A DNA stretch of 64,000 nt from Escherichia coli (lineage in GTDB: Bacteria; Pseudomonadota; Gammaproteobacteria; Enterobacterales; Enterobacteriaceae), in NCBI RefSeq assembly GCF_003991155.1, contig NZ_CP031293.1; one strand, written 5' to 3'. The notes beneath the pieces are model-generated. The model worked only from the letters and a program-made list of their open reading frames with translations, ran no database searches and was not told the DNA's origin. Positions 1 through 61,679 of the stretch are shown one piece after another (positions within the stretch are counted from its first letter, which is position 1; each line of letters begins with the position of its first letter). Made by a program: the position numbers and the translations under genes.

Positions 1-668
1 ACTGGAGCCGTATCACCGCACCAGTTGATGGTCGCGTTGGTCTCAAGCAGGTTGATGTTGGTAACCAAATCTCCAGTGGTGATACCACCGGGATTGTGGT
101 GATCACCCAGACGCATCCTATCGATTTGCTCTTTACCCTGCCGGAAAGCGATATCGCTACCGTAGTACAGGCGCAAAAAACCGGAAAACCGCTGGTTGTT
201 GAAGCCTGGGATCGCACCAACTCGAAGAAATTAAGTGAAGGCACGCTGTTAAGTCTCGATAACCAAATCGATGCCACTACCGGTACGATTAAAGTGAAAG
301 CACGCTTTAATAATCAGGATGATGCGCTGTTTCCCAATCAGTTTGTTAACGCGCGTATGTTAGTCGACACCGAACAAAACGCCGTGGTGATCCCCACCGC
401 CGCCCTGCAAATGGGCAATGAAGGCCATTTTGTCTGGGTGCTGAATAGCGAAAACAAGGTCAGCAAACATCTGGTGACGCCGGGCATTCAGGACAGTCAG
501 AAAGTGGTGATCCGCGCAGGTATTTCTGCGGGCGATCGCGTGGTGACGGATGGCATTGATCGCCTGACCGAAGGGGCGAAAGTGGAAGTGGTGGAAGCCC
601 AGAGCGCCACCACTTCGGAAGAGAAAGCCACCAGCCGCGAATACGCGAAAAAAGGAGCACGCTCCTGA
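1..668 (+). CDS. mdtA: MdtA, RND multidrug efflux membrane-fusion protein (C-terminal part; gene starts upstream of window; first full codon at nt 3)
   Basis: ORF open from the window edge. The C-terminal beta-barrel/MP-domain-like sequence is followed by mdtBCD-baeSR in the canonical order. The stop TGA overlaps the mdtB ATG (ATGA at 666-670). Confidence 0.9.
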
Positions 669-13182: not shown

Positions 13183-13266
13183 TTAATTTCGATTATTTTT
13201 CCCGGATGGAAAATTCTTAGAAACCGATCACATACAGCTGCATTTATTAAGGTTATCATCCGTTTC

Positions 13267-13353
13267 GCTGAAAAACATAACCCATAAAATGCTAGCTGTA
13301 CCAGGAACCACCTCCTTAGCCTGTGTAATCTCCCTTACACGGGCTTATTTTTT
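13267..13353 (+). ncRNA. cyaR: CyaR (RyeE) Hfq-dependent sRNA
   Basis: GCTGAAAAACATAACCCATAAAATGCTAGCTGTACCAGGAACCACCTCCTTAGCCTGTGTAATCTCCCTTACACGGGCTTATTTTTT matches the CyaR sequence as I remember it, including the terminator hairpin and U-run. It has the expected position after yegQ. Confidence 0.85.
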
Positions 13354-29491: not shown

Positions 29492-29625
29492 AGTTTGCTC
29501 CTGCCATAACGTGAAGAAGCAATGACCTGGTGGTCCGTGACTTCCCTACGCTGGCATTATCCAGATCAGGTGATACGGGTATTTCTCAGCCTTCACGCAG
29601 AAGGGCACCCCGAGTCGTTTGGTTG
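29492..29625 (-). promoter_or_regulatory. thiM TPP (thi-box) riboswitch: aptamer plus SD-sequestering expression platform
   Basis: The minus strand reads ..AACCAAACGACUCGGGGUGCCCUUCUGCGUGAAGGCUGAGAAAUACCCGUAUCACCUGAUCUGGAUAAUGCCAGCGUAGGGAAGUCACGGACCACCAGGUCAUUGCUUCUUCACGUUAUGGCAGGAGCAAACUAUG. This is the well-studied E. coli thiM riboswitch sequence. Confidence 0.93.
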
Positions 29626-29837
29626 AATCTCTATATTTTGTGCCAGCTTAGGGGAAGTGGCTTGCAGATGCAAGCTCGCCTCCATTAATTGCTTCTTCTC
29701 TGTGTACCCCATTTTGTACCCCATATCAGAAATGAAAAAGAAACATTTAACATCTATCATTCAGATGATAAAAACTATTGATTATCTTAATTTGCTAATT
29801 TATATTATTTATCTAAATTTGATAGGTGAGATAAAAA

Positions 29838-30077
29838 ATGACAGAAACCCAGATCTACGAGAACATTAAGCAAGCCATTAGCAGCGCACCACGAAATAGC
29901 CAAACGATGGAAATGCACCTCCAGATGATCAAATATGCTGACCATCTGAAAAAGGTTACGGCAAAAGAGTTTTGTGAAGGTGTAGGACTTAAAGCCAGCT
30001 TTGGTACAGAGTTCAGCAAAATGAGAAATCTTACCGAGCGACTCAAAGCTGCTGGACTTGACACCACGAAGTTATAA
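29838..30077 (+). CDS. Hypothetical small protein (79 aa), island-borne
   Basis: ORF preceded by an AT-rich promoter-like region and GGTGAGATAAAAAATG. No family recognised. Confidence 0.5.
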   Translation: MTETQIYENIKQAISSAPRNSQTMEMHLQMIKYADHLKKVTAKEFCEGVGLKASFGTEFSKMRNLTERLKAAGLDTTKL

Positions 30078-30242
30078 AAAACAAATCATCAATATATTAT
30101 TTTTGTTTTCCAGACTTACTTGCATATGTTTCTACGAGCATAAAAAACAACAACCACCACATAGCTATTACCATAATAATGTTTTCCTTTTATATTAAAC
30201 AGAGAAATAGAATTAGAGCGTGGAATAGATGAATTCTATTTT

Positions 30243-30488
30243 CTATAACTTCTTGAGGTTGAATGTAGAAAAAGACAGCTCTTTCATTTCAATAACACCG
30301 AAATTTGATAGCTGTTTCAGCCAGAATTTTAAACCTGACTCAGAGCAACCTGCTCGATGTAACACATCGCTATATTTTAGCGGTGTTGGCTTTCCTTTAT
30401 AGAGGTAAACAAGCGTTTCGTAGGTGTGTTTTCCGGTGTCGTTACACTGAATGCGGTCTACTTGATTTTTTACTAAATATTGGATCAT
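30243..30488 (-). CDS. Hypothetical small protein, possible winged-helix DNA-binding protein (81 aa)
   Basis: ORF starts 12 nt downstream of the stop of the 239-aa gene, with an AGGAGGA RBS. wHTH-like segment (YSDVLHRAGCSESGLKFWLKQLSNFGVI). Confidence 0.5.
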   Translation of the reverse strand: MIQYLVKNQVDRIQCNDTGKHTYETLVYLYKGKPTPLKYSDVLHRAGCSESGLKFWLKQLSNFGVIEMKELSFSTFNLKKL

Positions 30489-30499
30489 AGTCCTCCTTA

Positions 30500-31219
30500 T
30501 TAAAATGGAATGTCAAAATCGTCCTCTTCTGTCTCAGGTATCGTGTATATATGTTCTCTTCCTGTAAATTCAGAAACCACTATTGAAATTAGCCTGTATG
30601 CCTCTATTTTATCGCCCTGCGTTTCAGCTAAAGCCCACTCAAGGGCTGCTTCTGTTGGCTGTCCATTCGGTTTGCAAATAGTGACACCGCCCCAAGGAAG
30701 CTCTGTTTTTTCCTGCTGAATAGAGCGTGTTGTTTCTAGTGTTTTTTTATCTTCCGTAGGGGGAAGCTGTTCAGGAACAGCTTTAACAGTAGATACTTGC
30801 TCTGTCTGTGGCTTTTCTGCATTTACAGAGGCTTTCGCTTCTCTTGGTGCTGTAATATGTGCATCTGTAAAGGGTAATGCTTTATAGAGTGATGTTTGAC
30901 CGTGGCGTGCCTCTACAGAAAGAACTCCCATATCAACAAACATATTTATAATATTGCGTACCTGACGATCACTAACCATTCCAATATTAGCTAATGTTTT
31001 TTGAGTAGCGTAACATTCTTGCCCTTGTTCATTGAATCCAGCTATATAGCTATAGATTTCAACGGCTGGCAGTGTAGCGGTGTATTCATTACCAGATGGT
31101 GAGTACCATTTTTTAAACATCTTCAACCATTGCTCAACAACTACATATTTTTGTTTACCATCTTTCTGATTTAGACATTTGGCTTTCGCTTCGGCAATTG
31201 TTTTGATATTTTTGATCAT
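30500..31219 (-). CDS. wHTH replication-initiator-like protein with a Pro/Glu/Lys/Thr-rich (likely disordered) linker and an SSB-tip-like C-terminus (239 aa)
   Basis: HTH segment ATQKTLANIGMVSDRQVRNIINMFVDMGVL, typical of phage/plasmid O/DnaD-like N-terminal wHTH proteins. The C-terminus is ...ETEEDDFDIPF. Confidence 0.6.
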   Translation of the reverse strand: MIKNIKTIAEAKAKCLNQKDGKQKYVVVEQWLKMFKKWYSPSGNEYTATLPAVEIYSYIAGFNEQGQECYATQKTLANIGMVSDRQVRNIINMFVDMGVLSVEARHGQTSLYKALPFTDAHITAPREAKASVNAEKPQTEQVSTVKAVPEQLPPTEDKKTLETTRSIQQEKTELPWGGVTICKPNGQPTEAALEWALAETQGDKIEAYRLISIVVSEFTGREHIYTIPETEEDDFDIPF

Positions 31220-31343
31220 TTAGTTCCTCCTTTGTAAGGACTGTAATTAGTAGTTCATTAACAAGTTTTGGAATTGATTTCCCTTCTGCCTTTGCGCGAT
31301 TTAACAACGCGTTATAAGTTGCAGAGTCAAAATTAATATTCAT
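31155..31343 (-). CDS. Ribbon-helix-helix (Arc/CopG-like) small protein (62 aa)
   Basis: MNINFDSATYNALLNRAKAEGKSIPKLVNELL is an RHH-like pattern. GGAGAGGAGAA RBS lies 7 nt upstream of ATG 31343. The 3' end overlaps the next gene by 65 nt, so the exact extent is uncertain. Confidence 0.5.
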   Translation of the reverse strand: MNINFDSATYNALLNRAKAEGKSIPKLVNELLITVLTKEELNDQKYQNNCRSESQMSKSERW

Positions 31344-31365
31344 TTGGTTTTCTCCTCTCCTGTTA

Positions 31366-31548
31366 TTATTCTTTCTCTGCTTCTGCCTTACGCAGTTCAT
31401 CAATAATCTTGAGTGCATCGTCAAAGCATTTTTCACGCTCTGGATAACCTCGACTCCTTGCCATATTACGATTCATTACTACTTGATGTCGTGTTAACTC
31501 ACCTTTTTTAAATGCCTCTACGACGTGTTCCGGTATAAACCATTTCAT
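31366..31548 (-). CDS. Hypothetical small protein (60 aa), first gene of the leftward island operon
   Basis: AAGGAG RBS 7 nt upstream. Candidate promoter TTGACA-N17-AATAAT on the minus strand at 31687-31659. Confidence 0.5.
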   Translation of the reverse strand: MKWFIPEHVVEAFKKGELTRHQVVMNRNMARSRGYPEREKCFDDALKIIDELRKAEAEKE

Positions 31549-33312
31549 AAAAAACTCCTTATTCAGTTAAAAGAAAAACACCTTGCAAGCCTGACGGCTT
31601 CAAAGTGCATTGATTTTGATTATTTAGAGAAGAATGTTTTTCTGTCCCTCTAGTACCTATTATTACATATAAATAAACATTTGTCAATATCTTTTCATAA
31701 AAAATCAGAACCTTTTCATGCACTTACATTTTTTCTTAGCGATTCGTGCTCTCCTGTGTAGTGCTATTCTTCATTACCAGCTAAAACGCTCTAAAACGCG
31801 TTCTAACGAAGTTTTGATAAAAGCAATACATTCTCTTATGTAATGGCTGTTTAGCTCGCCAGAGGCTTATTTAAGTGGCTTATTTTGTATTTGTTAGATG
31901 ATGATAGATATAAAACAGAGAGTTCTTAGATTAGTTACTTTATAAAACGCTCTGTAAAGCCCTGTAGTGAGTTTATATATGTAGGCAAAGCGGTTTCCAT
32001 TCTCTACCCTGCTTAATGCTGTTAGAGAAGCATTTAGACCCCTTATTTTTAATTACCTAAAGTATCCTCTATACATCTCTGTTATGAAACACCTCTGAAT
32101 CCTTCATAAAACACATTATGACGCAAAGAACACTTTTCTAAGGTGATTCCCTTCCTGAACTCTGTTTCTTGCGTCAGAGAGCTACACAGAGAGCTTATAA
32201 AGCTATTATTAATAATAAAGTAGATAAAGTAAGTAAGATAAGTAAGAAGATTAACTAAGATAGATAAGATTAATAAGATCAGAATTCTCTTTCGGTGTCG
32301 CCTCTGGCTTTTCCACCGAAAACAATTACACGACTACAGAATGTAGGAAGTGAAATTGTATTGAGGCTTAGTGAAATTACACGAGGAAAGCAGAGTGTAA
32401 TTGAGCTTTAGCCGCTCTCTCTTCGAGTAATTACACAACTACAGAGAATAACAGAGTTATTAAATGTAGGAGGGTAATTAAGAGTTAGAGAGAGTTAACA
32501 CGTAAGCAATCAGATGATTGGTTAGGTGATTACTCTTACTGCGCACAGCGCAATAGTATTCCTTCGTGGGCGTTACCGCCAACGATAGTTACACGAAGAA
32601 AGTAACGCTTTGCTTTCGGTGTGAGCGGAACGGGCCAGCCACAAAGCCCGAAAGGTAGCGGAGTAAGGCTGCTTGCCAGAGAGTGGAGCTAACGCCGGAA
32701 GGCAAAAGATCATATATATAGTATAAAGAATATTATTTAATTATAGTATTGGTGGAACTCATTACCTAAGGTAAACCGGAGACCACTTCCAACGGTTAGG
32801 CAACCACTTCCAATTGTGTTATTTCCCCTTTTACCCTAAGTAAATTTTAGCCTTTCGTTACATCCATTTATCACATAGCACTTACCCTGTGTAAATCATA
32901 GAATAATGCTCTCTATTCCCTGTGTAATTCCATACTAAAAAATTCAATGAAAAGTAGTTTAAAAGTGCAATGTTAGCTTTCTTCACTTTTACATCACTTT
33001 CGCTGCGCCTTGTGTAATGCGGCTTACAGAGCACTATCAGAAATTATTGATCAAAAATCAACCTATTATTTGTCGAACAAGTTTTCTTTAATGCAACAAA
33101 AATTATTTTTTCAAAATAAACACACAATTTAATAGCTTGCTAATTTTACCAAAATGTAACTACATGATTCTCATGCAAGAAGTGTAGTGATAAGGCAGGC
33201 TAAATCACCACACTAAAAAACTTCGAATTTCGTAGTGAAAAAAGTACTTTACACACCTAATCAACACGCCCAATAATCACTACACACAAATCAATACAGA
33301 AGAAAAAAGAAG
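31549..33312. other. 1.76-kb ORF-free, motif-dense region: candidate replication origin and/or structured ncRNA locus
   Basis: No ORF of 60 aa or more in any frame. ATTACAC/GTGTAAT heptamers occur in both orientations (32325, 32376, 32430 / 32395, 32922, 33012, and variant 32889). There is a C-poor TAAG-rich tract (32211-32280), a GC-richer hairpin-rich core (about 32520-32700) and a pure AT stretch (32711-32750). Confidence 0.5.
33182..33213. promoter_or_regulatory. Candidate recombinase binding (res-like) site: GTGTAGTGAT-N12-ATCACCACAC
   Basis: 10-bp inverted half-sites (1 mismatch) lie 100 bp upstream of the serine recombinase gene. Further half-site copies are at 33230 (+) and 33276 (-). 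Confidence 0.4.
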
Positions 33313-33864
33313 ATGGCTAATATTGGATACATTAGGGTATCGACTGTGCAACAAAACACAGACCGTCAATTAGCAGGAGTAACTCTTGATAAAGTCTTTG
33401 AAGATAAAGCGTCAGGCAAGAACACTCAGCGCCCACAGTTTGAGGCAATGATGAACTATGTGCGGGAGGGTGACGTGTTACACGTCCATAGTATTGATCG
33501 CCTTTGTCGTAATACAGCCGACCTTCTGGCAACTGTAGAGCAATTAACAAAGCGCGGCGTGTCTGTGCATTTCCATAAAGAAGACTTTAAGACAGGAAAG
33601 AACTCTCCCGCAGGGAATATGATGCTCACAGTTCTTGCAGCAGTGGCACAAATGGAACGTGAAATGATGCTTGAGCGTCAACGTGAAGGGATCGCCGCAG
33701 CCAAGGCCGCTGGACGTATAGCAAAACGTGGTAATGGAAAAGCAATTGATCGAGCGGGAATTGCTGCCGCTCTCGCGAATGGTGGCTCAATTCGGAGCGT
33801 AGCAAAAGATTTCAGTGTCAGCACGCAGACGGTGCAACGTATCAAGAAAGAGCAGGTGGCGTAA
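33313..33864 (+). CDS. Small serine recombinase (resolvase/invertase family, 183 aa)
   Basis: MANIGYIRVSTVQQNTDRQ catalytic-Ser motif, the D..HVHSIDRL.R motif, and a C-terminal HTH (SIRSVAKDFSVSTQTVQRI). Confidence 0.88.
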   Translation: MANIGYIRVSTVQQNTDRQLAGVTLDKVFEDKASGKNTQRPQFEAMMNYVREGDVLHVHSIDRLCRNTADLLATVEQLTKRGVSVHFHKEDFKTGKNSPAGNMMLTVLAAVAQMEREMMLERQREGIAAAKAAGRIAKRGNGKAIDRAGIAAALANGGSIRSVAKDFSVSTQTVQRIKKEQVA

Positions 33865-34030
33865 TGCCTCCTTGATATTTGACAGGGACGGTCGGCAAAA
33901 ATCGGGGCTTGCTGATCTCAGCGTTGAGCGGTTCTTGCAATGGTGCCTAGGTGCTCGCTTGTATTCCCCTTCGATAATCACCACTAAGCCACTTATTGCC
34001 TTGTGGAGTGGCCCGAAAATTACTGATATC

Positions 34031-34495
34031 TTATTGATTCAGTCGATCCCATTTAACCGCAGATACAATTCCCCAATTACCACTAGCATTAGGCCTACGC
34101 CACTTCGCGGTTTCCATTCCACGAAGGTATTCGAGAGCTTCATTGAACGAACTGAAACGTTTCTGGGCTGATTTTTCCCCTACTCTAAACGAACCATCGC
34201 GAGTACTTGCCAATCCTGGATGAAAACACGACCCATCTGCAGCATAAGGAACAAGTACCTCCTGATCATCAGGTTTCCTTGAATCAGAAGCCAGTAACTG
34301 CCAAGGCTCAATACGCAAAGCGTCAGCCAGAACCTCAATTGCATCAAGAGATGCATTAGAGCAACCACGCTCAATTCGACTCATATAACTACGTGCAAAA
34401 CCACACCGATCTGCAAAGGCCTCTTGGCTTAAGCCAATAGCTATACGGAACTCTTTTACTCGTTGTCCAAAAAGGTATCTCAGATTCTTTCGCAT
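34031..34495 (-). CDS. XRE-family HTH regulator with an uncharacterised C-terminal domain (154 aa from MRKNL)
   Basis: HTH_3 pattern (LFGQRVKEFRIAIGLSQEAFADRCGFARSYMSRIERGCSNASLDAIEVLADAL), then about 85 aa with no recognised family. Confidence 0.75.
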   Translation of the reverse strand: MRKNLRYLFGQRVKEFRIAIGLSQEAFADRCGFARSYMSRIERGCSNASLDAIEVLADALRIEPWQLLASDSRKPDDQEVLVPYAADGSCFHPGLASTRDGSFRVGEKSAQKRFSSFNEALEYLRGMETAKWRRPNASGNWGIVSAVKWDRLNQ

Positions 34496-34605
34496 GGCAC
34501 AAAGATGCAATTTGACGCACCAATTAACCACGCACTAATCGTGACATTTTGAATCAATCATGTATTATTAGCATCACCATCCATTTGACACACCAAGGGA
34601 GACAA

Positions 34606-34953
34606 ATGAAAAAACTAGTATTTGCCGCTTTGTTAATTCCAGTGATGGGCCACGCCACAACCTTTTCCTGTAAAGCAATACAGGAAGGTCATATTGACTC
34701 GGGAAGTCAGAAAGTTTCTGTAGATTCAACTTTTGATATACAAGATAAAAAAATGACCATAAATCTTGGCGGTAAAACTTGGAGACTTGATTTGGTAGGT
34801 CAAAAAAGCATCGCAAAGATGTATGCTACACCTGACGGAGGGGTTGCAGCCACATACATTGACAATGGCAGTATACCGATATTTGTATTACGCCCTTCTA
34901 ATCCCGATGGGGAGATGGCTGTTTACACATTGAGTATGTGTTCTGAAGTATGA
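34606..34953 (+). CDS. Small secreted protein of unknown function (115 aa)
   Basis: Signal peptide MKKLVFAALLIPVMGHA/TT, AAGGGAG RBS, and a terminator directly downstream. Confidence 0.6.
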   Translation: MKKLVFAALLIPVMGHATTFSCKAIQEGHIDSGSQKVSVDSTFDIQDKKMTINLGGKTWRLDLVGQKSIAKMYATPDGGVAATYIDNGSIPIFVLRPSNPDGEMAVYTLSMCSEV

Positions 34954-34959
34954 TTGATC

Positions 34960-34983
34960 GGCGTGATATTCACGCCGTTTTTG
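34960..34983 (+). terminator. Rho-independent terminator
   Basis: GGCGTGA-TAT-TCACGCC followed by GTTTTT. Confidence 0.7.
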
Positions 34984-35030
34984 GGGAAATTTGTATATTG
35001 AAAAATATAGAAATAGAACTTTTATCAAGC

Positions 35031-35756
35031 CTATTTATTAACAGGTAGTAATGTCAGATCGCCATAATGGGCTTGTCTATGGCAATTAGGACATAATGCA
35101 ATAGCATTTTCCACAGAGTCCTCCCCCCCCTTTGAAAGCCACTCAATATGATGAACTTCTAGAAATGGAGTACCATCTTCCTTTAGAAAAGGAGCATCTC
35201 GCTTACAATATTGACATTTTCCATTTGCACTCAAAAGAACTTCAGCAACTACATATGGGCTTCGTTTATAAACTCGTGTTGTTACTTCGATTAGTTCCGG
35301 GATTTTACTTTCTGTCGCTAAAATTTGCTTTCGTTCCACTGAAGATAATTTTGCAGCCGTCTCAACAGCTTCTTCGAAAACCGATTTTACTTGACGATAA
35401 CGCCACATCCCTTCTAAATCCTGGTATAATTCCCAAATACCGTGCACAGATGGTTGATAGATTTCAAAAATATTTCCACGCTTGAACAATCGGTCATACT
35501 TATGATGCCGATGAGTTACATCATCAGTTCGTCGGGCAGTTTTGTTGAAACTCCAGTAGCTCCGCTTACAATTAACTGTATTAGCAATTAAATTGAGCCA
35601 AGTATTATCTTTATAAGATGGAAATAGCTTTCTAAGATAATCATCTACCTGCTTAGCCGTTGCAGCCCCACCAAACTGATTAGCAATTATCTGTATGGTA
35701 ATAGCTCTTATCGGTTGATCGCCATACTTGTATTTTTTGCCTAAATTTTTAACCAT
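35031..35756 (-). CDS. HNH nuclease with a roughly 160-aa uncharacterised N-terminal domain (241 aa); candidate type IV-like restriction/defence nuclease
   Basis: C-terminal HNH: CQYC...FLEVHHIEWLSKGGEDSVENAIALCPNCHRQAH (McrA-like beta-beta-alpha-Me with CxxC...CxxC). The N-terminal region is not recognisable. Confidence 0.75.
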   Translation of the reverse strand: MVKNLGKKYKYGDQPIRAITIQIIANQFGGAATAKQVDDYLRKLFPSYKDNTWLNLIANTVNCKRSYWSFNKTARRTDDVTHRHHKYDRLFKRGNIFEIYQPSVHGIWELYQDLEGMWRYRQVKSVFEEAVETAAKLSSVERKQILATESKIPELIEVTTRVYKRSPYVVAEVLLSANGKCQYCKRDAPFLKEDGTPFLEVHHIEWLSKGGEDSVENAIALCPNCHRQAHYGDLTLLPVNK

Positions 35757-35884
35757 AGAAGACTCACTAAGCCTAAATTCATCTTAAGTTATTATTGTAA
35801 ATTAGTTGTGAAAATTTTTGATCTCAGACAATAAAAATCTACAAATTATTAGCTGGTTATACACTAAGAAGGATACACGAATAA

Positions 35885-37192
35885 CTAAGTCTCCCAACAA
35901 AGACCATCGATCACATAACAAACGGTGGAAAGTGGGAATGTGTGCAGATAACGCTGGGTAATCCCTACTCCACTCTTTTCATGACCTACCACCTGTTGCA
36001 GATGCGCCAAATTACTCACCCAACCAGCTAAACAAGTAGAAATCATAGTATGCCGGAAACTATGCACCAAGCGCCGCTGCCCATAATCATCAAGATAAGG
36101 AATATCAAGCTGATCACGAACATCTGAAAGAACTTTACCTATCTTTGACATATTTCGACCTGAGACTTCCGAAAAGATTTTCTCTTTCCATTGGCGGTTA
36201 ACAAAATCCAGAAACCCCCACTCAATCAGTTTGGGATGAATCACTACCTGTCTTGTAGCATTCTCAGTTTTACCCAGCCTTCTTTCCGCGATCAGAAGAT
36301 AGTGCCGCTGGCTATCTTCATCAAATTTGATCTGCGACTTCTCCAGTTTAGCAATCTCACCTCTTCTGGCTCCTGTGTACGCCAACAACAAAGTGATCCA
36401 CTTCTGCCATCCATCAGGCTGCTTTAGTGCCCATCCTACAAATTTTTTCATTTCTGCTGCACTGTATGCACCAAACCTAGCTTTGGATGGTGCCGCTACT
36501 ATTCCATCAGTCGGAGACTTAGATAGAATATCTTTGTTTTCAGTCAGAAATGTTTTGAATAACGATTTGTAGATTTTAAGGTGCTTATGTACAGCCTCAG
36601 CACCAACTAAATCCTCTGGCAGCACATCATCACATTCGATTAGTTGCTGAATAGTCATTGACCTATACGGTTGCACTACACGCTTTGGTAAGTTTTCGAC
36701 AGTTTCCATTACTCGCTTAATATCTTGTTTGGTGATTGCCGTTACGTCTGTTTCTTTTCCCAAGACAACAAGCAATACCTCCATATAACGCTCATTTGCC
36801 ATTGAGATCGATTTTGTCCAATTTCGACCTCTTTCCTCCTTGTACATAGCCCACGCATCAGCAAGTGTTAGCACCTTTTCCGGTTTGGCTGGTGGTTGAA
36901 GCTGCAAAACTTCTTTAGAAATATTGTTCAATTGCTGAGGGAGTGGCAACGGAATCATTACGTTACGTGACGAAGCGATCAAGTTTGAAACAAACTTATT
37001 AAATTGTGGCAACGGAGTAGCGAGTGATTTAACGAAAGGAATGTGCGGAGTAAGGCCAATCATCAACGCCGATGCTTCGCGATAACTGTCAGTAAAAAGT
37101 GATTTTTTGTATATCCGACCATCCGAAAGCCGGATTTGTAGATAGTAATTACCGTTTCGCTGAAATGTGTATGGGAGAGTTCTTGACCTCAT
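35885..37192 (-). CDS. Tyrosine recombinase / phage-type integrase (435 aa from MRSRTLPYTF)
   Basis: Catalytic region ...TGARRGEI...HSFRHT...GHEKSGVGITQRYLH (R-H-R-Y). AGGGGG RBS before ATG 37192. Adjacent to the right att repeat. Confidence 0.9.
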   Translation of the reverse strand: MRSRTLPYTFQRNGNYYLQIRLSDGRIYKKSLFTDSYREASALMIGLTPHIPFVKSLATPLPQFNKFVSNLIASSRNVMIPLPLPQQLNNISKEVLQLQPPAKPEKVLTLADAWAMYKEERGRNWTKSISMANERYMEVLLVVLGKETDVTAITKQDIKRVMETVENLPKRVVQPYRSMTIQQLIECDDVLPEDLVGAEAVHKHLKIYKSLFKTFLTENKDILSKSPTDGIVAAPSKARFGAYSAAEMKKFVGWALKQPDGWQKWITLLLAYTGARRGEIAKLEKSQIKFDEDSQRHYLLIAERRLGKTENATRQVVIHPKLIEWGFLDFVNRQWKEKIFSEVSGRNMSKIGKVLSDVRDQLDIPYLDDYGQRRLVHSFRHTMISTCLAGWVSNLAHLQQVVGHEKSGVGITQRYLHTFPLSTVCYVIDGLCWET

Positions 37193-37275
37193 AAACGCCC
37201 CCTTTTTGTACCTTAACAGCATGATTTATGGTCAAAAAGAGATACAACCACATAATTTTCAAGACTATTTTGGCC

Positions 37276-37357
37276 CCCTACGCTGGCATTATCCAGATCA
37301 GGTGATACGGGTATTTCTCAGCCTTCACGCAGAAGGGCACCCCGAGTCGTTTGGTTG
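37276..37357 (-). promoter_or_regulatory. Second (orphan) copy of the thiM TPP aptamer, on the native promoter side of the island
   Basis: 100% identical to 29544-29625. It lacks the ..AAGUCACGG.. continuation and the expression platform, and is followed 83 nt later by the integrase start codon. Confidence 0.85.
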
Positions 37358-52197: not shown

Positions 52198-55100
52198 ATG
52201 AAAACCTATATTTATCAGGACGAAAAATCACATAAATTCTGGGCAGTGGAGCAACAGGGAAACGAGCTGCATATTAGTTGGGGCAAAGTCAGTACCAACG
52301 GGCAAAGCCAGGTAAAAAGCTTTGCTGATGCTGCGGCGGCGGAAAAAGCGGAACTGAGGCTGATTGCGGAGAAGATGAAGAAGGGGTATGTGGAGCAAGC
52401 GAAGGATAATTCTTTGCAACCTTCCCAAACGGTAACGGATTCTCTCAAGGTAGCGGCCTTATCCACCATTATTCAGGAACAACCCTTTTGCGTAGCAGAA
52501 GCCCGTGTGGCTGACAAAAATACAGATGATGTTTTACCGTGGCTGGCGAAAGATATTGCTGTCGTTTTTCCGCCCGAAGTTGTACACACCACGTTAAGCC
52601 ATCGCCGCTTTCCCGGAGTTCCTGTTCAGCAAGCAGACAACTTGACCCAGTTACGTCGCTTAGCCTGTAGCGTGTCGCAACGGGATAATAAAACAGCCAC
52701 ATTTGACTTCAGCGCCTGTTCTTTAGTATGGCAAAACACCGTCGCCCAGGCGATCAGTCAGATCGACTGCCTGAAAACAACACAGTTACCATCACCAGTA
52801 ATGGCTGTACTCACGGCACTTGAAATGAAATGCACAAGATATAAAGTGCGTGAGGATGTTATGGATCAGATCATTCAGGAAGGCGGTCTGGAATATGCTA
52901 CTGATGTAATAATACACCTTCAACAGATTGATATTGAATGGAATTATGCGAATAATATCATTATTATTCTGCCGTCTGGCATTGCACCTGATAACTTGCA
53001 GCAATATTCCAGTTTTGAATTACGCCTACGGAAACATTTATCACTGGCGGAAGAGTCTCTCTGGCAAAAATGTGCACAAAAACTTATTGCCGCAATTCCA
53101 CATATTCCAGAATGGCGGCAACCATTAATTGCTTTGTTATTACCCGAAAAACCAGAAATTGCACATGAAATTGCCCAGCGTCTACTGGGGAAAAAAAAAT
53201 TACCCTCGCTTGAGTGGCTAAAAATAGTGGCGACTGATGAGCACATTCTTGCCTCATTAGAAAAATATCACGAGCCATATGCCATTTTTGATGATTACTA
53301 TTGTGGTGCGATATGGTCAGCCACCGTATTACAGGAGCAAGGTGTTGCAGCCCTGCCCCGATTTGCTCCCTATGCCGCAAGTGACTACTGCGCCGATGTG
53401 TTGCGTCATATCAATCATCCGTTCGCATTAACACTGCTTATACGTGTAGCCGGGCATACTAAACGCTGTCACGATCGAATGACGAAAGCCTGCGCTGCGT
53501 TCCCACACGCAGCACTGGCAGCACTGGCGGAACTTCTAGTGCAAAAAGAAGAGAATAGTTGGCGCATTATGCTAATGACGATGCTTATCTCGCAACCAGC
53601 ACTGGCAGAACAGGTCATTCCCTGGCTTTCGACACCCGCAGCTGCAGTGCTGAAATCATGCCAGCAACAACTGACACAGCCATCAAACCATGCCAGCACC
53701 GATCTACTGCCGGCCATAGTAGTCTCCCCACCATGGCTTTCGAAAAAGAAAAAATCGTCGATTCCGGTGCTTGATTTAGCACCATTAGGCATTGAGCCAA
53801 TCAGTTATCTGACAGAAGAAATCAGTAATCAACTTTTGGCGAAATATATCTGGTATTCAAAACACATCACGGTTAGTCATGAAGAAAGTACTGCCAATCT
53901 GTTGGCAAGGATGGGTTTTCAACGACGGATCGCTGGTACATATATTAAAGCTCCCGAAGCGGTAGTTGAGGCATGGCTAAATGAAGATTATTCAACCTTA
54001 ATAAGTGAATTTAAGGTGTTTCATTCACCTACCGGGCATTATTGGCATTTGGGGATTTTGACAACATTGCCGCTGGAGAAAGCAATAAGAGCATGGAATG
54101 CCCTTACTCTATCTCCGCATACCGATACCGAATACGCCATGTTACATTTTGGACTCAAAGGATTACCTGGGTTAGTAAACTCACTTGCACGTTATCCACA
54201 GGAAGCCTTGCCCATAACGAATTACTTCGCAGCGAGTGAGCTGGCTCCTGCCGTCGCCCGCGCCTTCAACAAACTCAAAACCCTACGACAAGACGCCCGC
54301 ACCTGGCTGCTGAAATACCCGGAACACGCCATTACCGGCCTGCTACCTTCGGCGCTCGGCAAAGCCGGTGAAGCACAGGATAACGCCCGCGCTGCCTTGC
54401 GTATGCTTATCGAAAACGATCATCAGCCATTACTGCAAGAAATCGCCCGGCGTTATAACCAGCCGGAAGTAACAGATGCGGTGAACGCTATGCTTGCGCT
54501 CGATCCCTTAGATAATCACCCGACAAAAATCCCCACTCTTCCGGCCTTTTATCAGCCATCGATCTGGACCCGCCCGGTATTAAAAGCAAATGCCCAATCA
54601 CTGCCAGATAACGCCCTCCTCCACCTCGGTGAAATGCTCCGCTTCCCTCAGGAAGAGGCTCTGTATCCGGGATTATTGCAGGTGAAAGATGCCTGTACCG
54701 CCGACTCACTGGCTGAATTTGCCTGGGATCTGTTTACCGCCTGGCAGACCGCTGGCGCACCGTCGAAAGAAAGTTGGGCGTTCACTGCGTTAGGCGTTCT
54801 CGGTAACGATGACACCGCCCGCAAACTGACGCCATTAATCCGCGCCTGGCCTGGCGAATCTCAGCATAAACGTGCCACCGTTGGGTTGGATATTCTCGCT
54901 GCTATCGGCAGCGATATCGCCCTGATGCAGCTTAACGGCATCGCCCAGAAACTGAAATTCAAAGCATTACAGGAGCGAGCAAAAGAAAAAATTGCCGACA
55001 TTGCCGAAAGCCGCGAACTCACAGTGGCAGAACTTGAAGATCGGTTAGCACCGGATCTCGGTCTGGATGATAACGGTTCGCTGCTGCTGGATTTCGGGCC

Positions 55101-55992
55101 ACGGCAGTTCACCGTCAGCTTTGATGAAACCTTAAAACCGTTTGTGCGTGATGCTTCCGGCAGCCGCCTGAAAGACTTGCCTAAACCGAACAAAAGCGAT
55201 GATGAAACCCAAGCGAACGATGCAGTTAACCGCTACAAACTGTTGAAAAAAGATGCGCGTACCGTTGCCGCCCAGCAGGTAGCAAGGCTGGAATCCGCCA
55301 TGTGCCTACGCCGCCGCTGGTCGCCGGAAAACTTCCAGCTATTCCTGGTTGAGCATCCGCTGGTTCGCCACTTAACCCGCCGTCTGATTTGGGGCGTTTA
55401 TAGCACCGAAAACGAGCTACTGGCCTGTTTCCGGGTGGCAGAAGATAACAGCTACAGCACCGCTGACGATGATCTTTTCACCCTGCCGGAAGGCGATATC
55501 TCTATTGGTATTCCTCACGTTCTGGAAATATCACCGACGGATGCCGCCGCCTTTGGTCAGCTTTTTGCCGACTACGAACTTTTACCGCCGTTCCGTCAGC
55601 TCGACCGCAACAGTTATGCCCTGACTGAAGTCGAACGCAACGCCAGCGAACTAACCCGCTGGGCAGGCAGAAAATGCCCGAGCGGTCGGGTTATGGGGCT
55701 GTCGAATAAAGGCTGGGTGCGTGGTGAACCGCAGGACGGTGGCTGGATCGGCTGGATGATCAAACCTCTGGGCCGCTGGTCATTAATCATGGAAATCGAT
55801 GAAGGATTTGCAGTTGGTATGTCGCCAGCCGAACTCAGTGCCGAGCAACTCTTAAGCAAGCTGTGGCTATGGGAAGGCAAAGCAGAAAGCTATGGCTGGG
55901 GGAGTCATTCAACACAGGAAGCGCAGTTCTCCGCACTCGATGACATCACCGCCAGCGAGTTGATTAACGATATTGAAGCCCTGTTTGAATAA
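52198..55992 (+). CDS. WGR-domain plus DUF4132 large protein, paralog 2 (1264 aa; YehH/MolR family)
   Basis: Same architecture as paralog 1. Begins 12 nt after its stop. The N-terminal about 70 aa and the last about 20 aa are near-identical to paralog 1. Confidence 0.85.
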   Translation: MKTYIYQDEKSHKFWAVEQQGNELHISWGKVSTNGQSQVKSFADAAAAEKAELRLIAEKMKKGYVEQAKDNSLQPSQTVTDSLKVAALSTIIQEQPFCVAEARVADKNTDDVLPWLAKDIAVVFPPEVVHTTLSHRRFPGVPVQQADNLTQLRRLACSVSQRDNKTATFDFSACSLVWQNTVAQAISQIDCLKTTQLPSPVMAVLTALEMKCTRYKVREDVMDQIIQEGGLEYATDVIIHLQQIDIEWNYANNIIIILPSGIAPDNLQQYSSFELRLRKHLSLAEESLWQKCAQKLIAAIPHIPEWRQPLIALLLPEKPEIAHEIAQRLLGKKKLPSLEWLKIVATDEHILASLEKYHEPYAIFDDYYCGAIWSATVLQEQGVAALPRFAPYAASDYCADVLRHINHPFALTLLIRVAGHTKRCHDRMTKACAAFPHAALAALAELLVQKEENSWRIMLMTMLISQPALAEQVIPWLSTPAAAVLKSCQQQLTQPSNHASTDLLPAIVVSPPWLSKKKKSSIPVLDLAPLGIEPISYLTEEISNQLLAKYIWYSKHITVSHEESTANLLARMGFQRRIAGTYIKAPEAVVEAWLNEDYSTLISEFKVFHSPTGHYWHLGILTTLPLEKAIRAWNALTLSPHTDTEYAMLHFGLKGLPGLVNSLARYPQEALPITNYFAASELAPAVARAFNKLKTLRQDARTWLLKYPEHAITGLLPSALGKAGEAQDNARAALRMLIENDHQPLLQEIARRYNQPEVTDAVNAMLALDPLDNHPTKIPTLPAFYQPSIWTRPVLKANAQSLPDNALLHLGEMLRFPQEEALYPGLLQVKDACTADSLAEFAWDLFTAWQTAGAPSKESWAFTALGVLGNDDTARKLTPLIRAWPGESQHKRATVGLDILAAIGSDIALMQLNGIAQKLKFKALQERAKEKIADIAESRELTVAELEDRLAPDLGLDDNGSLLLDFGPRQFTVSFDETLKPFVRDASGSRLKDLPKPNKSDDETQANDAVNRYKLLKKDARTVAAQQVARLESAMCLRRRWSPENFQLFLVEHPLVRHLTRRLIWGVYSTENELLACFRVAEDNSYSTADDDLFTLPEGDISIGIPHVLEISPTDAAAFGQLFADYELLPPFRQLDRNSYALTEVERNASELTRWAGRKCPSGRVMGLSNKGWVRGEPQDGGWIGWMIKPLGRWSLIMEIDEGFAVGMSPAELSAEQLLSKLWLWEGKAESYGWGSHSTQEAQFSALDDITASELINDIEALFE

Positions 55993-59000: not shown

Positions 59001-59634
59001 CACCACCCGACGCTGGTCGCTGGCAGATTTTCATACTCTGTTTGTTAATCATCCCTTTACCCGCCTGGTTACTCAGCGATTAATATGGGGCGTGTATCCG
59101 GCAAATGAACCGCGTCGTTTACTCAACGCCTTTCGTGTGGCCGCAGAGGGGGAGTTCTGCAATGCACAAGATGAGCCCATTGACCTGCCTGCGGATGCTT
59201 TGATTGGCATTGCCCACCCGTTAGAAATGACAGCAGAAATGCGCAGTGAATTTGCACAGCTTTTTGCCGATTACGAAATTATGCCGCCTTTTCGCCAGTT
59301 GACGAGGCGCACAGTGCTGCTCACGCCTGACGAGTCAGCCAGTAACAGCCTGACTCGCTGGGAAGGTAAATCCGCTACCGTTGGGCAACTTATGGGAATG
59401 CGATACAAAGGCTGGGAGTCAGGCTATGAGGACGCATTTGTCTATGACCTGGGCGAGTACCGGCTGGTCCTTAAGTTTTCATCCGGTTTTAACCACTACA
59501 ATGTTGATAGCAAAGCGCTAATGAGCTTCCGTTCTCTTCATGTATACCGTGACAATAAATCTGTCACTTTTGCCGAACTTGATGTGTTTGATTTGAGTGA
59601 AGCGTTAAGCGCACCCGACGTCATTTTCCATTAA
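56002..59634 (+). CDS. yehI: YehI, DUF4132 large protein lacking the WGR domain (1210 aa)
   Basis: Third paralog, starting at the LPWLA motif that follows WGR plus linker in paralogs 1 and 2. Its length equals K-12 YehI as I recall. Confidence 0.85.
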   Translation: MDKELPWLADNAQLELKYKKGKTPLSHRNWPGEPVPVITESLIQTLGDKLLHIAEKKKNIVWRYENFSLEWQSAITQAINLIGEHKPSVPARTMAALACIAQNDSQQLLDEIVQQEGLEYATEVVIARQFIAQCYESDPLLVTLQYQNEDYGYGYRSETYNEFDLRLRKHLSLAEESCWQRCADKLIAALPGLPQVRRPFIALILPEKPEIANELVGLECPWTHFHSKEWLKVVATDHRAVGKLERYWSQDIFSDREASYMSHENHFGYAACAALLREQGIAAVPRLAMYAHKEDCGSLLVQINHPQVIRTLLLVADKNKPSLQRVAKYSKNFPHATLAALAELLALKEPPARPGYPIIEDKKLPAQQKARDEYWRTLLQTLMASQPQLAEEVMPWLSTQAQAVLNSYLSAPPKTVIDSTDNIQMPEILVSPPWRSKKKMTVPRLDLAPFELTPQVYWQPGERERLAATESARYFSTESLAERMEQKSGRVVLQELGFGDDVWLFLNYILPGKLDAARNSLIVQWHYYPGRVEEIMNGWSSPEAQLAEQALRNGHVEVLINIWENDSYSRYRREKSIWNLYLLAQLPREMALTFWLRINEKKHLSAGEDYFLSIFGLDALPGLLLAFSHRPKETFPLILNFGATELALPVARVWRRFAAQRDLARQWILHWPEHTATALIPLVFTKSSDNSEAALLALRLLYEQGHGELLQTVANRWQHTDVWPALEQLLKQGPMDIYPARIPKAPDFWHPTMWSRPRLITNNQPVTDDALEIIGDMLRFTQGGRFYCGLEQLKTFCQPQTLAAFAWDLFTAWQQVGAPAKDNWAFLALSLFGDESTARDLTTQILAWPQEGKSARAVSGLNILTQMNNDMALIQLHHISQRAKSRPLRDNAAEFLQVVAENRRLSQEQLADRLVPTLGLDDPQALSFDFGPRQFTVRFDENLNPVIFDQQNVRQKSVPRLRADDDQLKAPEALARLKGLKKDATQVSKNLLPRLETALRTTRRWSLADFHTLFVNHPFTRLVTQRLIWGVYPANEPRRLLNAFRVAAEGEFCNAQDEPIDLPADALIGIAHPLEMTAEMRSEFAQLFADYEIMPPFRQLTRRTVLLTPDESASNSLTRWEGKSATVGQLMGMRYKGWESGYEDAFVYDLGEYRLVLKFSSGFNHYNVDSKALMSFRSLHVYRDNKSVTFAELDVFDLSEALSAPDVIFH

Positions 59635-59694
59635 ACCACAGCGGGCAGTGATGCGACTGCCCGTTATTAACACGACCTGCCACCGGGAAAAGCG

Positions 59695-60015
59695 ATGATC
59701 GTGCAAAAAGAGCTGGTCGCTATTTATGATTATGAAGTCCCTGTACCTGAAGATCCGTTTTCCTTCAGACTTGAGATCCATAAATGCTCTGAATTATTTA
59801 CAGGTTCCATCTACCGGCTGGAGCGATTCCGGCTACATCCAACATTTCATCAACGTGATCGAGAGGATATCGACCCGCTAATAAATGATGCGTTGATTTA
59901 TATAAGAGATGAGTTTATTGATGAGCGAAAATTACGGGGCGAATCACCAGAAATGGTAATAGCCATTTTTAATCGTGAACTACAGAATATATTCAACCAA
60001 GAAATAGAAAAATAG
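59695..60015 (+). CDS. yehK: YehK small protein of unknown function (106 aa)
   Basis: ORF in the conserved position after yehI. A weak hairpin (59642-59668) precedes it. Confidence 0.7.
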   Translation: MIVQKELVAIYDYEVPVPEDPFSFRLEIHKCSELFTGSIYRLERFRLHPTFHQRDREDIDPLINDALIYIRDEFIDERKLRGESPEMVIAIFNRELQNIFNQEIEK

Positions 60016-60068
60016 CTTTATTAAAGAGGGAGACGGTATTCCCCCTTAGATGCGTTTCAATTTGCCCG

Positions 60069-60158
60069 TTACTTCAACAAATCAATCAACCGTAACAGAG
60101 CCACTAATAACTCCAGTACGGCAATGAGCACAGTTAACTTTTGTGTCAGCGTGTCCAT
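60069..60158 (-). CDS. zorO: ZorO-type type I toxin, 29-aa hydrophobic peptide MDTLTQKLTVLIAVLELLVALLRLIDLLK
   Basis: Not in the ORF track because it is too short. AAGGAGAG SD lies 4 nt upstream of ATG 60158. The single-TM amphipathic peptide matches the ZorO toxin sequence as I recall it. A roughly 175-nt 5' UTR runs from a consensus promoter. Confidence 0.75.
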   Translation of the reverse strand: MDTLTQKLTVLIAVLELLVALLRLIDLLK

Positions 60159-60339
60159 CCGCTCTCCTTATTAAGGAGCGCAACACCAGCACCTTACCCT
60201 TACACTGCCTGTCGATACTGGTTTACGTATGTTGGACCACGATGTTGCACTCCGGATCAGGGCACTACCTGCGGCACCACCCGTCCGGTAGCCATGACTT
60301 GAAATGGGTTCGATCCGGCGCAACGTCCCAACAGTCAGG

Positions 60340-60390
60340 ATTATAAATCTCATTATCTTAATTGCAACGGGGTCCACCGATGGTTATAAT
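60340..60390. promoter_or_regulatory. Back-to-back sigma70 promoters sharing one palindromic -35 (TTGCAA, 60362-60367)
   Basis: Plus strand: TTGCAA-N17-TATAAT (60385-60390), driving the sRNA. Minus strand: TTGCAA-N16-TATAAT (60345-60340), driving the toxin mRNA. Confidence 0.7.
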
Positions 60391-60396
60391 TCGTTC

Positions 60397-60479
60397 GTTG
60401 GAACACGATGTTGCACAGGCTGCGGCGTTGGGCCTGAAAATAGTAAATAAAAGAACCTGCCTCACCAGCAGGTTTTTTT
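60397..60479 (+). ncRNA. orzO: Orz-type antitoxin sRNA (about 83 nt)
   Basis: Consensus promoter upstream. Terminator AACCTGC-CTCACCA-GCAGGTT plus T7 at 60454-60479. The 5' 20 nt (GTTGGAACACGATGTTGCAC) repeat the plus-strand sequence at 60231-60250 with 1 mismatch, so they are complementary to the toxin 5' UTR. Confidence 0.72.
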
Positions 60480-60590
60480 ATTTACTGTGATCTGCTTTCC
60501 AGATATTTTCCGCTCAAACAACTAATGCGCCAAACATTTATTGCGCGTAAAATATCGTTTATTTCATTAATACATTTCAGGGATGAATAT

Positions 60591-61679
60591 ATGTCACCGC
60601 AGAATAATCATCTGCAGCGTCCGCCTGCCGCTGTGTTATACGCCGATGAACTGGCAAAATTAAAACAAAATGATCACGCACCTTGCCCGCCCGGTTGGCA
60701 GTTAAGTTTGCCTGCGGCCCGTGCTTTTATCCTTGGCGACGAAGCGCAAAATATTAGCCGTAAAGTCGTGATCAGTCCCTCCGCTGTCGAACGCATGTTA
60801 GTCACTCTCGCTACCGGGCGCGGTTTGATGTTGGTGGGGGAACCTGGCACCGCAAAATCGCTCCTGTCTGAATTACTGGCAACCGCTATTAGCGGCGATG
60901 CCGGGTTAACCATCCAGGGCGGCGCATCTACCACCGAAGATCAAATCAAGTACGGCTGGAACTACGCTCTGCTTATCAATCATGGTCCATCAACGGAAGC
61001 GCTGGTCCCTGCCCCGCTTTACCAGGGAATGCGCGACGGCAAAATCGTCCGTTTTGAAGAAATAACGCGTACACCGCTGGAAGTGCAGGACTGTCTGTTA
61101 GGTATGCTTTCTGACAGGGTGATGACGGTGCCGGAACTCACCGGTGAAGCCAGTCAGCTCTATGCGCGGGAAGGCTTTAATATTATTGCCACTGCCAATA
61201 CCCGCGATCGCGGCGTCAATGAAATGAGTGCTGCGCTAAAGCGTCGTTTCGATTTTGAAACTGTCTTTCCGATTATGGATTTCGCTCAGGAGCTGGAGCT
61301 TGTCGCCAGTGCTTCGGCGCGTTTGCTGGCCCATAGCGGTATTCCGCATAAAGTGCCTGACGCGGTACTGGAGTTACTGGTCCGCACCTTCCGCGATCTG
61401 CGTGCCAACGGCGAAAAGAAAACGTCAATGGATACACTAACAGCGATTATGTCCACCGCTGAAGCCGTGAACGTGGCCCACGCTGTGGGCGTCCGCGCCT
61501 GGTTTTTAGCGAATCGCGCAGGTGAGCCAGCCGATCTGGTGGACTGTATTGCCGGAACCATCGTCAAAGATAACGAAGAAGATCGCGCTCGTCTGCGCCG
61601 TTACTTCGAACAGCGAGTCGCCACACATAAAGAAGCTCACTGGCAGGCTTATTATCAAGCCCGCCACCGCCTGCCGTGA
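60591..61679 (+). CDS. yehL: YehL, MoxR-like AAA+ ATPase (362 aa from MSPQNN)
   Basis: Walker A GEPGTAKS, Walker B-like VRFEEITR, and sensor/arginine-finger regions typical of the MoxR/RavA clade. Confidence 0.9.
   Translation: MSPQNNHLQRPPAAVLYADELAKLKQNDHAPCPPGWQLSLPAARAFILGDEAQNISRKVVISPSAVERMLVTLATGRGLMLVGEPGTAKSLLSELLATAISGDAGLTIQGGASTTEDQIKYGWNYALLINHGPSTEALVPAPLYQGMRDGKIVRFEEITRTPLEVQDCLLGMLSDRVMTVPELTGEASQLYAREGFNIIATANTRDRGVNEMSAALKRRFDFETVFPIMDFAQELELVASASARLLAHSGIPHKVPDAVLELLVRTFRDLRANGEKKTSMDTLTAIMSTAEAVNVAHAVGVRAWFLANRAGEPADLVDCIAGTIVKDNEEDRARLRRYFEQRVATHKEAHWQAYYQARHRLP

Follow-up and report, generated by a model that had tools for sequence, protein, structure and literature searches.

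The zor-orz loci of Escherichia coli are toxin-antitoxin pairs of type I and were described in 2010 as a repeat family 'between yehI and yehL' in O157:H7; the discovery paper mapped both RNA starts, detected small RNAs (sRNAs) of ~85 nt and reported that most E. coli, Shigella and E. fergusonii carry the family, either once or in tandem (PMC2887945). The O157:H7 loci include zorO-orzO (z3289/sRNA-1), which is experimentally characterised, and zorP-orzP (z3290/sRNA-2 in EDL933/Sakai; Fozo 2010, Wen 2014, Shore 2024). Toxicity on overproduction is published for ZorO, sRNA rescue for the O157:H7 loci, and expression for OrzO, OrzP and OrzPmg, the last being the orz product of K-12 MG1655 (PMC11264685). 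In 2024 the systems were surveyed across >2,000 E. coli genomes (PMC11264685). The zor-orz system, its position, promoters, pairing rules and population distribution are thus already published, and an Rfam family exists. Here we analyse the gap between yehK and yehL (60016-60590) in a 64,000-nt stretch of E. coli DNA (assembly GCF_003991155.1, contig NZ_CP031293.1; hereafter the window), which we conclude, with a probability of about 0.93, to hold one intact zor-orz copy of the zorP-orzP pairing type. Our analysis addresses the anatomy of the sequence, the family and subtype to which it belongs, how well it is conserved and its predicted energetics; toxicity, sRNA rescue, RNase III dependence, processing and exposure of the EAP region are taken from the published work on O157:H7.

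The closest described system is zorP-orzP of Sakai, the yehL-proximal copy in the type locus of that strain (L005:33166-34405; L numbers denote the loci compared). It has the same yehL-proximal position as the window locus, the same length of 5' untranslated region (UTR), the same hairpin at the ribosome-binding site (RBS) and identical promoter hexamers and spacing; Orz nucleotides +1..+26 and the 20-nt target are also identical (sRNA 5' end GTTGGAACACGATGTTGCAC, target GTTGGACCACGATGTTGCAC), including an A:G mismatch at Orz +7. Unlike Sakai, the window has a single copy with no zorO-orzO partner, encodes T3 instead of S3, has an Orz body substituted at 60423, 60426 and 60430 so as to stabilise a 5' hairpin, and shows four differences within the spacer of the orz promoter, some changes of its own in the UTR and, at the yehK stop, a deletion of ~56 nt. 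With zorO-orzO it shares the toxin peptide and the architecture and, presumably, the mechanism, i.e. a 174-nt UTR, processing that removes the first 28 nt (delta-28), EAP standby, pairing by the Orz 5' end and RNase III. It differs from zorO-orzO, including the yehK-proximal copy of Sakai, at Orz +6 and +9..+11; pairing in the O type spans 18 nt and includes one G:U, and in the window it is 6(1)13, i.e. six pairs, one mismatch and 13 pairs. Because of these differences the two types do not cross-react. The OrzPmg locus of K-12 (orz-only; Shore 2024) has the same position, divergent promoter module, Orz 5' end and terminator, but is without the zor ORF, the RBS, the target and most of the UTR, all of which the window retains. 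Other known standby-regulated toxin loci likewise have a divergent sRNA with 18-21 nt of 5'-end pairing far upstream of a sequestered RBS, a toxin mRNA activated by 5' processing, and a ribosome standby logic; their sequences and toxins are unrelated to those considered here, and a shared -35 hexamer is not described in the accessible text on them.

Results

Identity and anatomy of the locus

The 575-nt gap is identical (100%) in E. coli 2016C-3878, where it lies between yehK and yehL in the order yehI-yehK-yehL-yehM-yehP-yehQ and has zero annotated features, and it is also identical in SMS-3-5; the gene order annotated in Sakai likewise puts the locus between yehI/yehK and yehL, matching the published position. 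The Rfam family RF02083 (OrzO-P) matched the plus strand at 60404-60479 with 102.8 bits against a gathering score of 60 (E = 6e-16 for the whole window), over model positions 1-76 of 76, the model itself covering just +8..+83 of Orz. Together with a GC-rich terminator hairpin at 60454-60474 and a run of seven T at 60473-60479, this match supports the ~83-nt plus-strand RNA with a canonical terminator (60454-60479) that a first-pass annotation of the sequence had proposed. By Rfam scan and 13-mer search of the 64 kb, the window has one zor-orz copy and no tandem pair; a second, sub-threshold orz match on the minus strand (60449-60559; 25.2 bits, E = 0.23) was rejected as the near-palindromic Orz terminator read backwards.

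On the minus strand, the ORF listing and the sequence agree on a 29-aa peptide at 60158-60069 with a strong Shine-Dalgarno (SD) sequence, AAGGAG, 5 nt ahead of the ATG. The peptide is identical letter for letter to published ZorO (PMC6669753) and to that of the Sakai O copy. With the transcription start site (TSS) placed at 60332, the sequence fits every published landmark exactly: the UTR measures 174 nt, in keeping with the long leader suggested earlier, the RBS (+164..169) falls at 60169..60164 and EAP (+73..102) at 60260..60231 (PMC5397157). The Orz target is 73-92 nt upstream of the zor ATG, matching the published distance (PMC2887945). Were the hairpin downstream of zor to act as a terminator, it would yield a transcript of ~310 nt, which is consistent with the published zorO transcripts of ~280 and ~310 nt.

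The hidden ZorO/Orz-type type I locus that the first-pass annotation placed between yehK and yehL is therefore confirmed in family, anatomy and coordinates (Table 1), and its features are indeed without annotation, RefSeq listing neither zor nor orz for the gap. No zor or orz feature is present in RefSeq for any of the eight E. coli genomes inspected, O157:H7 Sakai included, and Pfam and NCBIfam searches with the 29-aa peptide found no family model.

Table 1. Features of the zor-orz locus in the yehK-yehL gap (window coordinates)
Feature	Coordinates	Strand	Basis and remarks
Terminator-like hairpin GGGGGAATACCGTCTCC with U-rich tail, downstream of zor	60029..60045	-	terminator scan
zor toxin ORF, 29 aa + stop, MDTLTQKLTVLIAVLELLVALLRLIDLLK	60158..60069	-	ORF listing
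zor 5' UTR, 174 nt	60159..60332	-	TSS inferred at 60332; published delta-28 processed end would be 60304
RBS hairpin, anti-SD CUCCUU (60178..60173) with SD AAGGAG (60169..60164)	60161..60182	-	minimum free energy (MFE) and partition-function folds
Orz target site	60231..60250	-	direct repeat of Orz 5' end, 19/20
Standby-like GGAGUG	60253..60248	-	conserved motif (PMC11264685)
zor mRNA 5' leader +1..+22, GUUGGGACGUUGCGCCGGAUCG, predicted cis pairing with EAP/Orz site	60311..60332	-	duplex energy, MFE fold
zor promoter -10, TATAAT	60340..60345	-	promoter scan; 10/10 copies; 100% conserved in published survey
Palindromic TTGCAA, -35 of both promoters	60362..60367		spacer 16 nt to zor -10, 17 nt to orz -10
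orz promoter -10, TATAAT	60385..60390	+	promoter scan; invariant in copies compared
Orz sRNA, ~83 nt, P-type; pairing region +1..+20 (60397-60416); V1 ACG (60405-60407)	60397..60479	+	Rfam, sequence
Orz intrinsic terminator, stem AACCTGC/GCAGGTT, 7-nt loop, T7 tail	60454..60479	+	terminator scan, Rfam structure line, inverted repeat

Pairing type

The V1 segment of Orz (+9..+11), which sets specificity, is GAA in OrzO and ACG in OrzP (PMC3919570). With +1 at G60397, V1 of the window Orz is ACG. The P state is found at 28 of the 29 diagnostic sites, a set chosen because in Sakai as well as in E. whittamii they distinguish O from P copies robustly, and the target differs from that of zorO at 7 of its 20 positions. 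The peptide has T3, not the S3 of the ZorP variant, and A20, not the S20 of the ZorQ variant; S3 is an unreliable marker of the P type, because T3 also occurs in the P copies of E. whittamii and in the single P copies of O55:H7 and MOD1-EC7003, and it is because T3 is the ancestral state that the window peptide equals ZorO. In the published survey 72.5% of all zor ORFs encode ZorO, and 25% of genomes have a single copy (PMC11264685). On sequence grounds, the locus is thus a single-copy zorP-orzP-type pair encoding the commonest Zor protein. The identification as zorO-orzO made in the first-pass annotation holds for the toxin peptide and fails for the pairing type; likewise, an alignment to EDL933/Sakai-type loci, run on Sakai, returned the expected family with zorP/orzP, not zorO/orzO, as the closest relative.

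A third pairing type, found in E2348/69 (Orz GTTGGGGCGCCATG..., V1 = GCC), is clearly different from that of the window; its +7 is also unpaired, as G:A. In that strain (L010, ~1125-1250) the Orz reads GTTGGGGCGCCATGTTGCAT, and the cognate target leaves +7 unpaired. In GPEC1210 (L011 gap 926-2073) the yehK-proximal Orz is GTTGAGATGCCATGTTGCAC and an O-type copy stands beside yehL, a copy order unlike that of O157:H7.

Orz-target pairing and the +7 mismatch

The 20-nt repeat formed by 60231-60250 and 60397-60416 has C60237 versus A60403 as its sole difference and extends to 25 nt at 88%; its 13-mer core, CACGATGTTGCAC, has just two occurrences in the 64 kb, both of them in this locus, which goes beyond chance. 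The 13 contiguous and 6 further pairs previously proposed between the Orz 5' end and the zor UTR are confirmed as a 6(1)13 pattern of 19 pairs. In published work 17 discontinuous pairs suffice for repression, and a 6(1)11 mutant of OrzO, mismatched at the same +7, represses fully (PMC3919570). With a predicted energy of -34.0 kcal/mol, the cognate duplex would be more stable than that of the validated O pair (-31.3), while the cross pairs reach -18.9 (OrzP with the zorO target) and -24.4 kcal/mol. The mismatch at +7 costs ~4.3 kcal/mol (-34.0 versus -38.3 when repaired).

All P-type copies examined (Sakai, C8, O55:H7, SMS-3-5, E. whittamii and MOD1-EC7003) have A opposite G at +7. Among 5,426 complete E. 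coli genomes the native target was found in 2,802 and the native Orz end in 4,681, and +7 was repaired on either side in none (0/5,426), although a variant with extra single-nucleotide polymorphisms within ~15 nt would escape this search, which used 42-43-nt queries centred on the site and a 28-nt megablast word demanding the exact variant. A strain-specific mismatch was rejected on its recurrence in Sakai, C8, O55:H7, E. whittamii and MOD1-EC7003 and on the lack of repaired forms in these genomes. Since OrzO and OrzP both have A at +7, the mismatch cannot help to tell the antitoxins apart. To the earlier suggestion that it might affect the specificity or strength of repression the answer, given also the full activity of the 6(1)11 mutant, is that the +7 mismatch is a fixed, canonical state of zorP-orzP, and a tolerated one.

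Divergent promoters and the shared -35 hexamer

A promoter scan of 59500-61000 found exactly two sigma-70-like sites, both using the TTGCAA at 60362-60367; by itself the scan is not significant (2 found versus 2.7 expected). The arrangement ATTATA-16-TTGCAA-17-TATAAT is unchanged in 10 of 10 copies from five strains or species, and 18 of the 33 spacer columns vary. The ten copies comprise O, P and third-type loci of E. coli together with copies from E. whittamii and Escherichia sp.; they were found by a pattern requiring the hexamers, and every copy expected in those loci was recovered. The use of one hexamer as the -35 of both promoters, as put forward in the first reading of the sequence, is upheld by these spacings and by the invariance, and the published survey assigns TTGCAA to both genes with identical conservation figures (PMC11264685).

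The zor and orz starts are 65 bp apart, and the A/T-rich -10 of each promoter falls at about -53..-58 of the other. The footprint of RNA polymerase extends from about -55 to +20. Over a start distance of 65 bp, a polymerase at one promoter would cover the -35 of the other and reach its -10, and it is therefore reasonable to infer that occupancy of the zor and orz promoters is mutually exclusive. The zor-orz literature searched, which was covered in its text and not its figures, contains no discussion of the consequences of the shared -35, of bidirectional promoters or of the similarity between Orz and the zor leader.

Predicted structure of the toxin mRNA

In folding predictions the SD sequence has a probability of being unpaired of 0.07 in the full-length mRNA and 0.11 in the delta-28 form, and its sequestration agrees with published structure probing (PMC5397157). 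The MFE fold of the full-length mRNA pairs its first ~22 nt with the EAP/Orz site, and the portion of the target opposite V1 is predicted to form an internal loop of this cis structure. The duplex predicted between the leader and EAP has an energy of -26.8 kcal/mol, compared with -16.5 on average for shuffles (z = -3.3; 1 of 500 shuffles reaches the value), and z ranges from -3.2 to -5.0 in other zor copies. The zor leader, GUUGGGACGUUGCGCC, resembles the Orz 5' end, as is to be expected of RNAs that share a binding site, and the two transcripts share a GUUGG... start. The repeat search missed this inverted similarity between the zor leader and Orz, because its longest exact seed is 5 nt, and duplex energies compared with shuffles were used instead.

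Features particular to the lineage

Canonical OrzP, as in Sakai and K-12, has T, T and A at 60423, 60426 and 60430, and the window Orz has C, C and G. Each of these substitutions stabilises the same 10-bp hairpin (+10..19 with +25..34); its predicted energy is -11.5 kcal/mol in the window and -0.1 in canonical OrzP, with E. whittamii in between at -6.0. Exact matches to the 83-nt allele number 333 among E. coli records, each with one copy. After the yehK stop, other strains have a ~56-nt segment that the window lineage, SMS-3-5 included, lacks; it has inverted ends, TATACTC...GAGTATA (window 60010-60030 versus Sakai L005:33160-33225, L002 and L004). The deletion changes TAA to AAA-TAG, giving a YehK of 106 aa instead of 105, and brings yehK within 13 nt of the zor terminator hairpin. 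The lineage-specific Orz allele with its stabilised 5' hairpin and the deletion at the yehK stop are the small novelties of this locus.

Distribution and polarity

Part of the gap is matched in 5,232 of the 5,426 E. coli genomes and at least 80% of it in 3,392, counts in line with the published split of 3% with none, 30% orz-only and 67% full (PMC11264685). In a K-12-like laboratory strain the gap is 306 nt and keeps the zor -10, the shared -35, ~28 nt of the zor UTR and a complete orz; at the deletion junction (TTCAA joined to ATTGG) this remainder is fused to sequence just after yehK, and what was lost is the toxin ORF with its RBS, the target and the greater part of the UTR. The statement in the first-pass annotation that the locus is absent from K-12 must accordingly be corrected, since the zor promoter, ~28 nt of UTR and an intact, expressed orz are retained there. 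We also observed that the junction in this locus (L004 2987-3293) lies between imperfect short repeats, TTCAA versus TTGAA/TTAAA, and that the remaining stub of the zor UTR is roughly as long as the 28-nt piece that processing cuts off where the locus is intact.

The module is at the same place in E. whittamii, in a tandem O+P form. Searched for as an exact 34-nt pattern in species-representative genomes, it was recovered in Escherichia alone; E. fergusonii, reported as a carrier in 2010, was not recovered, which the exactness of the pattern may explain. As the locus occupies the same position in 96% of E. coli and in E. whittamii, strains without it carry deletions. Comparison of these sequences thus indicates that the locus is ancestral to a genus-level clade and that the K-12 state is a deletion, and its earlier description as inserted in the yehI..yehLMPQ cluster had the polarity reversed.

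Other features of the window

Two matches to the thiamine pyrophosphate (TPP) riboswitch (RF00059), both on the minus strand, are at 29544-29625 and 37276-37357 (71.2 and 61.3 bits) and share an 82-nt perfect direct repeat. One is upstream of thiM/thiD-like ORFs and the other directly upstream of a 445-aa phage-integrase-family ORF (35885..37222, minus strand); between them (~29626-37275) are a helix-turn-helix protein, a resolvase and an HNH endonuclease. The region looks like a ~7.7-kb integrative island using, and duplicating, the thiM TPP riboswitch as its attachment site. The CyaR/RyeE sRNA (RF00112, 100.7 bits) at 13265-13350 on the plus strand is ordinary and expected in E. coli. A DUF4132 gene upstream of yehI (~52200-55990; L001:1-1977) is annotated as an intact coding sequence in this strain, and the molR-family region that corresponds to it in Sakai (L005:22340-29147) is a 6.8-kb pseudogene.

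Discussion

The anatomy of the locus suggests the following mechanism, by extension from the O157:H7 systems. The minus strand would give rise to an mRNA of ~310 nt with a 174-nt 5' UTR, encoding the 29-aa ZorO sequence, a hydrophobic toxin of the inner membrane. The primary zor transcript would be poorly translated, because the CUCCUU/AAGGAG hairpin sequesters its RBS and because EAP, further upstream, is paired with its first ~22-28 nt; removal of the first 28 nt would then expose EAP, a standby-like site with GGAGUG, and boost translation. The divergent Orz of ~83 nt, made from a promoter with the same TTGCAA -35, would pair through its first 20 nt with mRNA positions +83..+102 in the 6(1)13 pattern, and this pairing is expected to block the standby site and to trigger RNase III-dependent decay, thus keeping the toxin off.

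By analogy the window allele would behave like the O157:H7 loci, and several points weigh against so direct a transfer. The stabilised hairpin is predicted to bury Orz +10..+19, including two of the V1 nucleotides, which could slow target recognition. The predicted accessibility of EAP rises modestly, from 0.29 to 0.38, when the first 28 nt are removed. Repression of zorP by OrzP, moreover, appears in the accessible portions of the published text to be deduced from complementarity and from O-type mutants.

Of the alternatives to an intact P-type toxin-antitoxin pair, the one that survives best is that Orz also has a role beyond repression of zor, e.g. in regulating other mRNAs in trans, with the toxin being secondary. 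Orz-only strains keep a 100%-conserved, expressed OrzP (PMC11264685), and the P-type Orz 5' end is found in 4,681 genomes versus 2,802 with the P-type target; no other target is known, however, and retention without a toxin may be cost-free. We consider such a role rather unlikely, and it would in any case be compatible with an antitoxin function.

An O/P recombinant, in which a tandem pair collapsed by unequal crossover so that a zorO ORF was joined to a zorP UTR and orzP, would account for an ORF that matches O at 89 and P at 86 of 90 positions, with everything to the right of the target site being P-like. When the O and P copies of E. whittamii are used as outgroups, however, the ORF and 3' flank have no robust O/P site, and the bases of Sakai P and O55 at 60102, 60110 and 60120 prove to be derived in that lineage; in Escherichia sp. 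MOD1-EC7003, too, the single copy is P-type and encodes this peptide. The ORF differences are thus lineage-derived rather than O/P markers, and we rejected a mosaic arising by tandem collapse as very improbable.

It is also very improbable that the locus is a decaying remnant comparable to the orz-only loci of K-12, with a toxin that is no longer made or controlled. In favour of decay are the loss of zor from ~30% of E. coli genomes (PMC11264685) and, in this lineage, a ~56-nt deletion of its own beside the zor terminator and a changed Orz hairpin. Against it, the ORF, SD, anti-SD, target and EAP are intact, as are the two promoters and the two terminators; 333 records preserve this very Orz allele, and SMS-3-5 has the same gap without a single difference. 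An O-type zorO-orzO locus whose A/C difference is a strain-specific mutation in the pairing window can be dismissed, for despite a peptide identical to ZorO (T3, A20) and four ORF sites that fit Sakai O better than Sakai P, the apparently O-like bases are ancestral states common to the P copies of E. whittamii and MOD1-EC7003, V1 is ACG and not GAA, the target and sRNA 5' end are those of Sakai zorP/orzP, +7 mismatch included, 28 of the 29 diagnostic sites are P, and OrzP would bind the zorO target with just -18.9 kcal/mol.

For the intact P-type pair, a more speculative view can be offered, which we hold as tentative and on balance doubtful: the promoter region may be a quasi-palindromic switch, with Orz a copy, acting in trans, of the cis-inhibitory zor leader, the unpaired +7 a selected property and the Orz hairpin a means of tuning potency. 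If so, a polymerase at one promoter would occlude the other, and both leaders would compete for +83..+102 of the toxin mRNA. The unpaired +7, which is fixed in the P type and recurs in the third pairing type, would then be a selected feature and not the result of drift, and in the SMS-3-5 lineage the more stable Orz hairpin would serve to tune the potency of the antitoxin.

As a discovery the finding amounts to little; it is useful as a point about annotation. A toxic gene and its sRNA are invisible in ~96% of E. coli genomes because NCBI's pipeline annotated neither in the genomes inspected and no Pfam or NCBIfam model of the toxin exists. The locus also raises questions for the biology of the family, namely whether the shared -35 hexamer makes transcription of zor and orz mutually exclusive, why the mismatch at +7 is never repaired, and how the Orz allele of this lineage may bear on the strength of repression.

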